Positions 62,074-64,000 of a stretch of DNA of 64,000 bases are shown here, one piece after another. Numbering within the stretch: position 1 is the first letter of the stretch; each line of letters starts with the position of its first letter. The stretch spans positions 7,846 through 71,845 of the forward strand of contig JAXHKS010000024.1 in the NCBI GenBank assembly GCA_034523115.1. The letters are read 5' to 3'. The translations under genes were made by a program, and so were the position numbers. The notes under the pieces were generated by a model that searched no databases, was not told the origin of the DNA, and was given only the letters and a program-made list of their open reading frames with translations. Source of the DNA: Flavobacteriaceae bacterium (GTDB taxonomy: Bacteria; Bacteroidota; Bacteroidia; Flavobacteriales; Flavobacteriaceae).

Positions 62074-63649
62074 ATGCGTACAGATTTTGAAATAAAAGAA
62101 CCCCGATTAATAGATGTTAAAGAACTAATCCGAAAATACAATTATGAGGATGAAATAAGTGCGTCTATAGAAACCGAGAACCTGCTGCCTGGCGGGAATC
62201 CTGCACCGGTTGCACGCATGCTATCCGCAGCATTCAGGTTCAAGTAAAAGTTCTGAGTTTTTATTCAAGGAGAAAGACCATTATTCAGGTATAGAGGTTT
62301 CAGAGAAATCCTGTCCTGTTTGAAAAGAATGGCATTGATATAGGCTACCAGAAAGAGCGCGAATTTTTTCTGGAAGTGTACCGTTTTCTGGCAACCAAAC
62401 ACAGCCTGAATGCCATTGACTGGAATAACTTTGAAAAAGATTTCATGTTTCAGCTCATTTTTCCGCAGCCGGACATGATCAGCCGGGAAGAAGTAGCCAT
62501 TTATGAAGCTGCGAGAACAAAAGAAGAAAGGGCCAAAGTGGTGGAAGCCTACCAAGAAGACCAATCCGCACGACGGCCATCAAAAATTAAACAAACCCTG
62601 GTTTCTTGATGATGAGGGGCATCTGGAAGATCTTCAGGAAGCCAGCACAAATACCCCTCCGGTTCAACTGGTCTTTGACAAGACAACCCAGAACTGTTTC
62701 GCATTTTGCACCTATTGTTTTAGGCATGCACAGGTGCGGGGAGATGAGGATATGTTCGTGCAGCGGGATATAGACCAACTGCATGCCTATTTAAGAATAC
62801 ACCAGGAAATAACGGATATCCTGATCACAGGTGGTGATGCGGGTTATATCACCTACAGCAGGCTAAAACAATACGTCCTTCCATTTATTGAAGATGATAC
62901 CCTGCTTCAGATCAAAACCCTCAGGCTGGTTTAAGGGCGCTTACCTTTCAACCTGAACTGATGAAAGACGCTTACAAACCCATTCTGGAATCGTCTTCAG
63001 AAACTTATAGAAAACGGCCATCCAGGTGCTGTGGATGGCTCATTTTTACTCGCCGAAAGAGCTGTTAAATCCTGAGTACCATCGCTGCCATTACGCAGGT
63101 TGAAAAAATACGGACTTACATAAAAAGCCAAAGTCCGATTATGAACCACATCAGTTTGTTCTCTGATAAAAACGGAAAGGTAGATATAGACCGATCTGCC
63201 CAAAACTGGATAGACCTTGGAAACATCCTGGCCATGCTGGGCATAGGATTCCATTCGATGTATTGTGCCAGACCTACCGGTGAGCACCATTATTTCACCG
63301 CACCCTGGCGGATATCAACAAAGTCTTTCAGCAAGGTGTTTAAAACCCTGGCATCCATCAACCGTCCGTCAAGGTATATCACCATGACCTCTTCGGCAGG
63401 CAAGGTTTCCATGCTGGGCACGGCCATAGTAAATGGCTGAAAAGTTTTCGCCTAAAATTCAATGAAGCGAGGAATATGGACTGGATGGATAAGGTTTACT
63501 TAGCCAAATACGATGAAAAGGAAAAACCATAGACAAACTAAAACCCTACGATACTGAACAAATATTCTCATGAAGAAGAACTTACTATGATAGAAGATTA
63601 GCTGGCAGATGCTTTGGAAAAAGAGATTGTTAAATCTGAGCACGCATGA
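62074..63649 (+). CDS. KamA-family radical-SAM/PLP aminomutase-like protein, many indels
   Basis: FQLIFPQPDM, SQHKYP, CFAFCTYCFR (CxxxCxxC, 62695-62718), DILITGGD, WMAHF, MTSSAGKV. Confidence 0.85.
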
Positions 63650-64000
63650 TCAATAAAATAATGGGGAGTGCCCATGAAGCAGTAGCCGACATTCATGACG
63701 GGGCTACTGTCATGATCAGCGGCTTTGGAGAGGCCGGGAGTCCGATAGAGTTGATCCATGCCTTAATTGATCTGGGAGCAAAAAACCTCACGGTTGTGAG
63801 CAACAATACGGGCAGTGGCAATGTGGGCCTGGCCGCCCTCATAGAGAACCCGGCAGGTTAAAAAAATGATCTGTTCTTTTGCGAGAACGGCAAACTCAAC
63901 CGTATTTCCTGATTTGTACCGAAAAGGCGAGATCGAGCTCGAACTCGTGCCTCAGGGCACACTTGCCGAAAGGATCAGGGCAGGGGGTGCCGGCATTCCT
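63646..64000 (+). CDS. 3-oxoacid CoA-transferase subunit A (PcaI-like), truncated by the window end
   Basis: MINKI...[56 protein letters not shown] overlap with the upstream stop. Confidence 0.9.

Follow-up and report, generated by a model that had tools for sequence, protein, structure and literature searches.

KamA-type 2,3-aminomutases are radical S-adenosylmethionine (SAM) enzymes that use pyridoxal phosphate (PLP) to convert α- into β-amino acids, and the described members include the lysine 2,3-aminomutase KamA of Clostridium subterminale (2A5H; TIGR03820) and the glutamate 2,3-aminomutase Eam (TIGR04368). A second well-described module is the lower β-ketoadipate pathway, in which the CoA-transferase PcaIJ or CatIJ and the thiolase PcaF (6PCA) degrade 3-oxoadipate, and a third is the catabolism of lysine through 2-aminoadipate. 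The latter compound is reached by saccharopine, pipecolate and lysine dehydrogenase routes, and its known degradation proceeds via 2-oxoadipate, formed by a transaminase, and then via glutaryl-CoA or HglS/YdiJ. Here, we describe a five-gene operon of a Flavobacteriaceae bacterium, which starts at the end of a 64,000-nucleotide stretch (assembly GCA_034523115.1, contig JAXHKS010000024.1, positions 7,846 to 71,845, hereafter the window) and codes for a KamA-like aminomutase, both subunits of a 3-oxoacid CoA-transferase, a class III aminotransferase and a thiolase. The operon probably connects the three modules in a route that degrades 2-aminoadipate by way of 3-oxoadipate.

In the proposed pathway, the aminomutase would convert 2-aminoadipate to 3-aminoadipate, the class III transaminase would turn 3-aminoadipate into 3-oxoadipate, the PcaIJ-type transferase would produce 3-oxoadipyl-CoA, and the PcaF-type thiolase would cleave this thioester to succinyl-CoA and acetyl-CoA. 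We consider this order of events, with transamination preceding CoA transfer, somewhat more likely than not, and hold with good confidence that the operon serves a 2-aminoadipate route with these two steps in either order. The α-to-β shift, the β-transamination and the cleavage of 3-oxoadipyl-CoA would join up with 2-aminoadipate as the input; substrates, direction and step order are deduced from the gene content, its conservation, the fold, the residue changes and the lysine-catabolic neighbours that are observed. The net reaction would convert 2-aminoadipate, a 2-oxo acid and CoA to succinate, acetyl-CoA and an amino acid, and from 2-aminoadipate onwards neither oxygen nor a redox step would be needed. 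The upstream supply of 2-aminoadipate, including ALDH7/AmaB, would be shared with the known routes via 2-oxoadipate; however, those routes remove the α-amino group and lose C1 as carbon dioxide, whereas the predicted route would retain the six carbons and split them into four plus two. ALDH7 is the piperideine-6-carboxylate dehydrogenase.

The order of the five genes is conserved in several bacterial phyla. We compared 80 genome loci and 80 metagenome loci that carry the aminomutase, many of which are kin or near-duplicates, so that the counts are not independent, and partner genes were counted only in loci with at least 4,300 nucleotides downstream (18 genome and 48 metagenome loci were too short). 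Among the loci counted, 60 of the 62 from genomes and 29 of the 32 from metagenomes have all four partners, namely subunits A and B, transaminase and thiolase, behind the aminomutase; the exceptions are four loci that lack only the thiolase, and L077, in which ALDH7 instead stands directly after the aminomutase. According to the record titles, the operon occurs in Bacteroidota in the wide sense, Cloacimonadota, Edwardsbacteria, Elusimicrobia, Aminicenantes, Desulfuromusa and Gemmatimonadota. The linkage of aminomutase and CoA-transferase, from which an earlier note on this DNA had derived a possible amino acid catabolic route, is therefore a conserved one, and the genes that follow position 64,000 are, as that note had predicted, a transferase subunit B, a class III aminotransferase and a 3-oxoadipyl-CoA thiolase. 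The aminomutase clade itself is rare, with 2 of 400 Bacteroidota genomes in an even draw, and the operon is patchy within the genus (6 of 14 other genomes). PcaF scores over its cut-off in 6 of the 14 genus genomes, five times within 5 kilobases (kb) on the contig of the aminomutase. The stop codon of the aminomutase overlaps the start codon of subunit A (ATGA, 63646-63649), and the same overlap is present in the Flavobacteriaceae loci L014 and L027 and in L016, L018, L019, L025, L047 and L090; many other relatives have different short overlaps or gaps of about 10-200 nucleotides between the two genes. The conserved feature is thus the gene order and not the overlap, and translational coupling, as proposed in the earlier note, can be ruled out as a conserved feature even though the ATGA overlap is real. 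In L151, L160 and L152, the transaminase follows directly after the aminomutase or after a short remnant of subunit A, an arrangement which suggests that aminomutase and transaminase form the core pair.

The aminomutase gene spans 62074..63649 on the forward strand and is present there as frameshifted pieces of a predicted 2-aminoadipate 2,3-aminomutase. Its start agrees with the N-terminus MQTDFEIKEP of the relative L014, and a fragment from the window matches the KamA family model TIGR00238 (E 1.6e-9). As the window copy is broken, the functional analysis rests on intact relatives, which are approximately 510-550 amino acids long. All motifs to which the earlier note had drawn attention are found at their positions: the CxxxCxxC [4Fe-4S] motif (CFAFCTYC, 62695-62718), followed by an arginine equivalent to KamA Arg134 (motif and arginine, 62695..62724), the radical-SAM motif TGGD (62827..62838), which is invariant in our alignment A1, and SSAGK (63390-63404) with the codon of the predicted PLP lysine at 63402-63404. 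Residues were mapped to the numbering of 2A5H by alignment with a true TIGR03820 member. The three cysteines and the equivalents of Arg134, His230 and Lys337 are present in every one of the 65 clade members, as are CxxxCxxC and GGD; by alignment, clade residues Lys444 and Arg217 correspond to Lys337 and Arg134, which we take to be the PLP lysine and the arginine that binds the substrate carboxylate, respectively. An AlphaFold2 model of the intact relative L016, with a predicted local distance difference test score (pLDDT) of 89.1, superimposes from residue 57 onwards on 324 residues of 2A5H (Z 28.2, root-mean-square deviation 3.4 Å; Foldseek E 2.6e-13), and the next entry reaches a Z of 11.8; 2A5H is the only solved relative of the clade. 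Motifs, modelled fold, PLP lysine and carboxylate arginine thus suggest that the enzyme works like KamA-type radical-SAM/PLP 2,3-aminomutases.

KamA and the clade have the fold, CxxxCxxC, GGD and the equivalents of Arg134, His230 and Lys337 in common; however, they share only 18% identity in the structural alignment, and the clade has about 55 additional N-terminal residues, a C-terminal consensus without the cysteine cluster, and a different operon. Three intact clade members score 73.5-78.3 bits on TIGR00238, below its cut-off of 199.2, and the clade stays far below the cut-offs of the models for lysine 2,3-aminomutase (TIGR03820, 60-69 versus 525.4 bits, with a control, L123, at 621), glutamate 2,3-aminomutase (TIGR04368, 52-64 versus 650), EpmB (TIGR03821, 52-55 versus 369.3) and arginine 2,3-aminomutase (TIGR04468, 61-65 versus 600). 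None of the curated KamA-type models covers the clade. The first match in the ESM Atlas is an unnamed "hypothetical protein" cluster, which is possibly that of the protein itself, and the others are named after lysine aminomutase or radical SAM. A quick tree was built from every third row of alignment A1, leaving out nine distant representatives with degenerate-looking motifs; in this tree, the operon clade forms a separate branch (Shimodaira-Hasegawa-like approximate likelihood ratio test 100, length 0.94), nested in a wider group of relatives of about 440 amino acids. This sister family, which gave 56 matches across the 400 Bacteroidota genomes, likewise lacks a curated model and mostly stands alone: genes for transferase, transaminase, thiolase, ALDH7 and saccharopine enzymes were found in 0 of 18 sister loci, which rules it out as a second home of the operon. 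Compared with the sister family, the clade has its own invariant changes (His218, Arg222, His394-Ser395 and Pro401). Among the members of the sister family (L096-L113, L011, L134-L137 and P0028), some lie in polyketide synthase (PKS) or non-ribosomal peptide synthetase clusters, and one is fused to an N-monooxygenase domain. In another group of canonical KamA length (L126-L128), glutamine takes the place of Asp293 and the DTP(Y/H)GK loop is shortened; the best model for L127 is arginine 2,3-aminomutase, with 466 of the 600 bits of the cut-off.

Asp293 and Asp330 of KamA presumably hold the amine of the lysine side chain, and both are replaced in the clade. The Asp293 position is an arginine in 65 of 65 members (in the window, 63270-63272 within the motif YCARP, 63261..63275), compared with aspartate in 16 of 20 canonical KamA-like controls, and the Asp330 position is a threonine in 59 and a serine in 6 of the 65 (threonine in the window motif TMTSSAGK, 63381..63404), compared with aspartate in 19 of 20 controls. 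Eam is assumed to have a basic residue at the Asp293 position as well. The gene of one sister enzyme with the same arginine belongs to a macrolactam PKS cluster, where its neighbours code for a PLP enzyme, for an adenylating enzyme and for a hydrolase of the proline iminopeptidase type, a setting that resembles that of IdnL4 from the incednine cluster. A review regards IdnL4 as a likely glutamate 2,3-aminomutase for which in vitro proof is pending (PMC11284099). The arginine and the IdnL4-like setting point to an acidic substrate rather than lysine and leave its chain length undefined. The predicted chemistry on an acidic amino acid would be the same as that of Eam and IdnL4; however, the clade stays far below the cut-off of TIGR04368 and forms a separate branch that is tied to a transaminase, PcaIJ and PcaF.

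The transaminase gene lies beyond the window (about 65039-66386, forward strand; window numbering is continued here along the contig, C24) and is frameshifted. Its product is a HemL-like class III aminotransferase, which does not reach the cut-off for HemL itself (TIGR00713, 342.5 versus 527.3 bits) and whose best solved structure is 6K8H (E 6.7e-111). The latter enzyme, StoTA, acts on free β- and γ-amino acids, and its Arg36 was proposed to bind the substrate carboxyl group (PMC10589169). The equivalent arginine, which lies in a GGx(S/T)RN motif and aligns with R36 of 6K8H, is kept in 123 of 128 transaminases. The HemL-like class III fold type is shared with StoTA, VpAT (4AO9), MesAT (2YKU) and Kat; a dicarboxylic β-amino acid is not described as a substrate of StoTA, VpAT or MesAT in the available portions of the literature. 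A separate homologue of the transaminase with 32% identity is encoded on contig C9 of the same genome.

Subunit A of the CoA-transferase begins within the window, which contains its 5' part (63646..64000), and continues to 64363 with one frameshift near 63851; subunit B follows at 64354 to about 65030, both on the forward strand. The 3' piece of subunit A scores 242 bits on TIGR02429 (cut-off 128.5) and the broken piece of subunit B 242.3 bits on TIGR02428 (cut-off 243.55), and an intact relative passes both cut-offs with 352.9 and 309.5 bits, respectively. The ENG (xENG) motif, whose glutamate we take to be catalytic, is present in 128 of 129 transferases. The best plasmid matches of subunit A are 59-69% identical and include a copy from an IclR-pcaIJF cluster, which has 62% identity and shares a CSFPR motif; copies annotated as ScoA-like or generic reach at most 53%. 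The likeness to PcaI that the earlier note had recognized in two motifs is upheld for one of them: CSF (63872-63880) matches the pcaIJF-type subunit, and two ScoA chains read iasyv at this place. However, the 20-residue ELVPQG motif (63941-64000) is identical in the ScoA chain 3CDK and is ruled out as a marker of PcaI.

The last gene of the operon (about 66405-67621, forward strand, frameshifted) encodes a PcaF-type thiolase. The best models for this copy are pcaF and PRK09050, and the thiolase of the intact relative L076 scores 665.8 bits on TIGR02430 (PcaF), well over the cut-off of 597, as do six copies from the same genus with 663-676 bits. Its nearest solved structures are 8GQH, which bears no title beyond "Thiolase", and the β-ketoadipyl-CoA thiolase 6PCA. 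An equivalent of Arg65 in the motif NQxGEDNR, mapped by its spacing of 25 residues before the catalytic cysteine, is present in 100 of 101 thiolases; R65 and C90 of PcaF have the same spacing, and Arg65 lies near the active site (PMC7337054). The chain length of the substrate would follow from the PcaF-type thiolase and its pca-type partners; 2-aminoadipate would be expected to give the C6 compound 3-oxoadipyl-CoA. The operon thus shares with the lower β-ketoadipate pathway a thiolase over the PcaF cut-off and a subunit A with 62% identity and the CSFPR motif; in contrast to that pathway, ring-cleavage or lactone genes were found neither among the recurrent neighbours nor, over cut-off, in this 82%-complete genome, and 3-oxoadipate would instead originate from an amino acid.

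Genes of lysine catabolism are found beside the operon in several lineages. Of the 80 genome and 80 metagenome loci, 15 and 7, respectively, contain ALDH7, and 16 and 7 contain saccharopine dehydrogenases; ALDH7 was over its cut-off in all three loci that were scored (L045, L077 and L088). In Prolixibacteraceae, the genes are arranged as thiolase, ALDH7 and saccharopine dehydrogenase; in the Cloacimonadota loci L038 and L039, a saccharopine dehydrogenase and an LKR-like gene stand directly upstream on the same strand; and in Desulfuromusa (L088), ALDH7 is accompanied by an ATP-binding cassette (ABC) transporter for polar amino acids. Locus L142 combines a divergent pipecolate-oxidase-like gene, for which AmaA is the best model (459 bits, cut-off 600), with ALDH7 and an ABC transporter, and in L177, ALDH7 and a gene of the saccharopine/lysine dehydrogenase family lie directly upstream; the nearest structure of the latter is PH1688, presumably a lysine 6-dehydrogenase. 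Judged by family membership, three different entries to aminoadipate semialdehyde (saccharopine, pipecolate-oxidase-like and lysine-dehydrogenase-like) thus appear to recur beside the operon in separate lineages. Together with the loss of both lysine-binding aspartates, these neighbours favour 2-aminoadipate as the substrate. Locus L143 (1-2139) has a YdiJ-type D-2-hydroxyglutarate dehydrogenase gene as divergent neighbour of the aminomutase; YdiJ-type enzymes have been linked to lysine catabolism in Pseudomonas. The recurrent annotated neighbours include no acetyltransferase, deacetylase, kamDE, kdd or kce gene and no ring-cleavage, lactone or PaaA gene, and hence correspond neither to the lysine fermentation set nor to an aromatic pca/paa cluster, the two neighbourhoods which the earlier note had regarded as incompatible with its proposal.

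The genome that contains the window, which is 82% complete and in which all negative results have to be read accordingly, carries, away from the operon, an ALDH7 gene over cut-off as well as genes for a saccharopine dehydrogenase (60%) and an LKR-like protein (30%). In the same assembly, neither a PF00775 ring-cleavage dioxygenase nor PaaA (PF05138) nor a PF05853 protein (BKACE/kce) was found, and the enol-lactone hydrolase PcaD (TIGR02427) was matched only under cut-off; kamD (PF09043) was not found here nor in any of the control genomes, and its absence is therefore uninformative.

A second architecture was found on a plasmid of Mesorhizobium sp. 113-3-3 (NZ_AP023244.1; L221:5160-10011), which encodes a 476-amino-acid protein, a ferredoxin, a transaminase and a CoA-transferase pair, and which is the sole copy of this arrangement in the plasmid collection. 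Its transaminase is the best plasmid match of the operon transaminase (53% identity), and the 476-amino-acid "hypothetical protein" (WP_199202193.1) is KamA-like and 22% identical to the clade, with an arginine at the Asp293 position and no aspartate at position 330. The CoA-transferase is of another structural type and resembles glutaconate transferases; its subunit B shares about 66% identity with the one encoded beside pcaF in the pca region of Sinorhizobium, and the open frame of its subunit A, with 242 amino acids, is shorter than the Sinorhizobium gene, so that this copy may be damaged. Two unrelated pca-type transferases and two distant aminomutases combined with one transaminase would be the picture expected of convergence on 3-oxoadipate. 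We consider it fairly probable that the clade represents the first natural 2-aminoadipate 2,3-aminomutase, that the operon provides an oxygen-independent, redox-neutral exit of lysine into the lower β-ketoadipate pathway, and that this module was built at least twice from non-orthologous parts, once from the clade and a TIGR02429-type PcaIJ and once from the 22%-identical aminomutase and a glutaconate-transferase-like PcaIJ.

Several observations weigh against the 2-aminoadipate route. Almost all ALDH7-linked genome loci (14 of 15) belong to Bacteroidota and nearly all, by title, to Prolixibacteraceae, and the retrieved DNA shows no ALDH7 in 65 of 80 genome and 73 of 80 metagenome loci. In addition, 13 of the 14 other genus genomes contain ALDH7, whether they carry the operon or not, so that its presence in the genome studied here says little. 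The arginine/threonine signature is common to the sister family, with arginine in 19 of 19 members, and can therefore not separate glutamate from 2-aminoadipate. The models TIGR02429 and TIGR02428 fail to separate PcaIJ from ScoAB, and the operon copy in this assembly is broken. The closest plasmid pair of subunits A and B (69% and 64%), on Tistrella mobilis pTM2 (L218:1-7391), adjoins ALDH7, HglS, which we take to be the 2-oxoadipate dioxygenase/decarboxylase, a PLP aminotransferase and a GcvA-type regulator, with no aminomutase within 12.7 kb; the transferase clade may thus have another substrate in lysine catabolism and may serve another lysine-derived acid as well. Furthermore, PcaF and other degradative thiolases accept several acyl chain lengths (PMC7337054).

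The alternative that survives best keeps the same substrate and reverses the order of two steps: the transferase would first form 3-aminoadipyl-CoA, which the HemL-like enzyme would then convert by direct transamination into 3-oxoadipyl-CoA, in the way that Kat acts on 3-aminobutyryl-CoA. Kat is a HemL-like class III enzyme that is encoded beside a thiolase in the kdd/kce lysine fermentation context and acts on thioesters only (PMC3149608). The gene order of transferase, transaminase and thiolase fits this sequence of events, which would also avoid a free β-keto acid. However, the arginine that binds the carboxyl group in transaminases of free β-amino acids is kept in nearly all operon enzymes, both recruited transferase types resemble those of pcaIJF clusters, and in L151 and L160 no transferase gene stands between aminomutase and transaminase. 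We consider it unlikely, although worth keeping in mind, that CoA transfer comes first.

The main rival with respect to the substrate is glutamate, which would be converted to β-glutamate and 3-oxoglutarate or its CoA thioester and then to malonyl-CoA and acetyl-CoA, or be decarboxylated to acetoacetate. Glutamate is far more abundant than 2-aminoadipate, and the clade branches within a group of relatives that also carry the arginine, one of which stands in the IdnL4-like setting. Moreover, glutamate 2,3-aminomutases are known (bioRxiv 10.1101/2025.11.21.689712). This substrate nevertheless appears somewhat less likely still than the reversed step order: the clade reaches less than a tenth of the TIGR04368 cut-off, its thiolase is of the PcaF type and not an acetoacetyl-CoA thiolase, the recurrent neighbours make 2-aminoadipate, and the clade-specific invariant residues set it apart from the sister family.

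Independently of the substrate, the operon might be a decaying pseudogene cluster in this particular genome, whatever its function elsewhere. The aminomutase is split over at least five frame pieces, and none of the operon genes in the window has an intact open reading frame (ORF). In comparison with the closest Flavobacteriaceae relatives, the five genes have 66 insertions or deletions (indels), 51 of them of 1 base pair (bp), and, counted codon by codon, 485 synonymous, 188 non-synonymous and 5 stop differences. The indels, the stops, the patchy distribution within the genus and the aminomutase of the relative L014 (genome G014), which is also broken once, would fit decay. However, synonymous differences clearly outnumber non-synonymous ones, and the damage extends to unrelated genes: dense 1-bp indels run through contig positions 60,000-90,000 (window about 52000-64000 and beyond), where flanking genes are broken too and the coverage by long ORFs is 0-0.09, compared with 0.44-0.79 at 10,000-60,000, and lysA (contig C10) and dapF (contig C19) are each split in two pieces. 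Damage over about 30 kb of unrelated genes and in lysA and dapF therefore argues for assembly error as the cause; the broken frames are likely errors of an unpolished assembly, and recent decay is improbable. Seven contigs from one public read run (16% of words) left 62169-63475 uncovered and bridged no frameshift. Given the density of 1-bp indels, gene calls across this assembly will be unreliable.

A reverse or partial route, in which 3-aminoadipate would serve as an osmolyte or 2-aminoadipate would be made from succinyl-CoA and acetyl-CoA for lysine synthesis, is very improbable. In principle, each of the four steps could run in reverse, saccharopine enzymes of the split type can serve biosynthesis, a dapF-like gene lies within the L088 cluster, and β-amino acids are described as osmolytes; however, neighbours such as ALDH7 and the pipecolate-oxidase type belong to catabolism, L088 and L142 include linked uptake systems, the genome itself has lysA-like and dapF-like genes and no LysX over cut-off, and PcaF is a degradative thiolase (PMC7337054). 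Least probable of all is a divergent lysine or N-acyl-lysine 2,3-aminomutase that feeds a β-lysine route: JGI sources label many homologues "lysine 2,3-aminomutase", the sole solved relative is KamA and the neighbours are lysine-catabolic, but both aspartates are absent from all 65 clade members, one being replaced by arginine, the TIGR03820 scores lie far below the cut-off, neither the fermentation and acetylation genes among the annotated neighbours nor the BKACE family in the genome were found, and the linked enzymes would use up lysine before the aminomutase step.

Regarding the surroundings of the operon, a DUF418 gene lies upstream of the aminomutase in the window, at the position where relatives carry a regulator. 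An XRE-cupin (PuuR-like) regulator is encoded upstream in 10 of 80 genome loci (L024, L028, L030, L031, L037, L047, L059, L076, L082 and L091) and 19 of 80 metagenome loci, and is replaced by GcvA- or other LysR-type regulators in other loci. A scan for promoters and terminators gave nothing usable, with 9 promoter-like sites compared with 11.7 in shuffled sequences and 13 terminator-like sites compared with 7.7 ± 2.9. Further upstream, a frameshifted gene (58626 to about 60450) has an intact orthologue of 611 amino acids in L014 without a Pfam match at 1e-5, and an intact pair at 50124-52243, consisting of a membrane 4Fe-4S dicluster protein (438 amino acids) and a CCG-domain protein (261 amino acids), is probably an Fe-S oxidoreductase.

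A literature search, which covered titles and the openings of abstracts and reached neither most subscription journals nor supplements, returned no description of a route from 2-aminoadipate to 3-oxoadipate. Each step is of known chemistry, so that the novelty would lie in the substrate and in the wiring of known modules. If the proposed pathway holds, the many annotations of such genes as "lysine 2,3-aminomutase", "hemL" or "pca" would have to be corrected; 1,735 homologous proteins were found at E ≤1e-30, a count that may include sister-family members. A link from lysine to 3-oxoadipate would also be useful for the production of bio-based adipate, where the step described as missing is the removal of the amino group from 2-aminoadipate or lysine (PMC7241714). 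The proposal is directly testable, and cultured carriers of the operon exist (Draconibacterium, Maribellus and Ancylomarina). If it is true, the small set of radical-SAM aminomutases would gain a new substrate and lysine degradation a new route, and the occurrence of PcaIJ and PcaF in bacteria that lack genes for aromatic ring cleavage would be explained.

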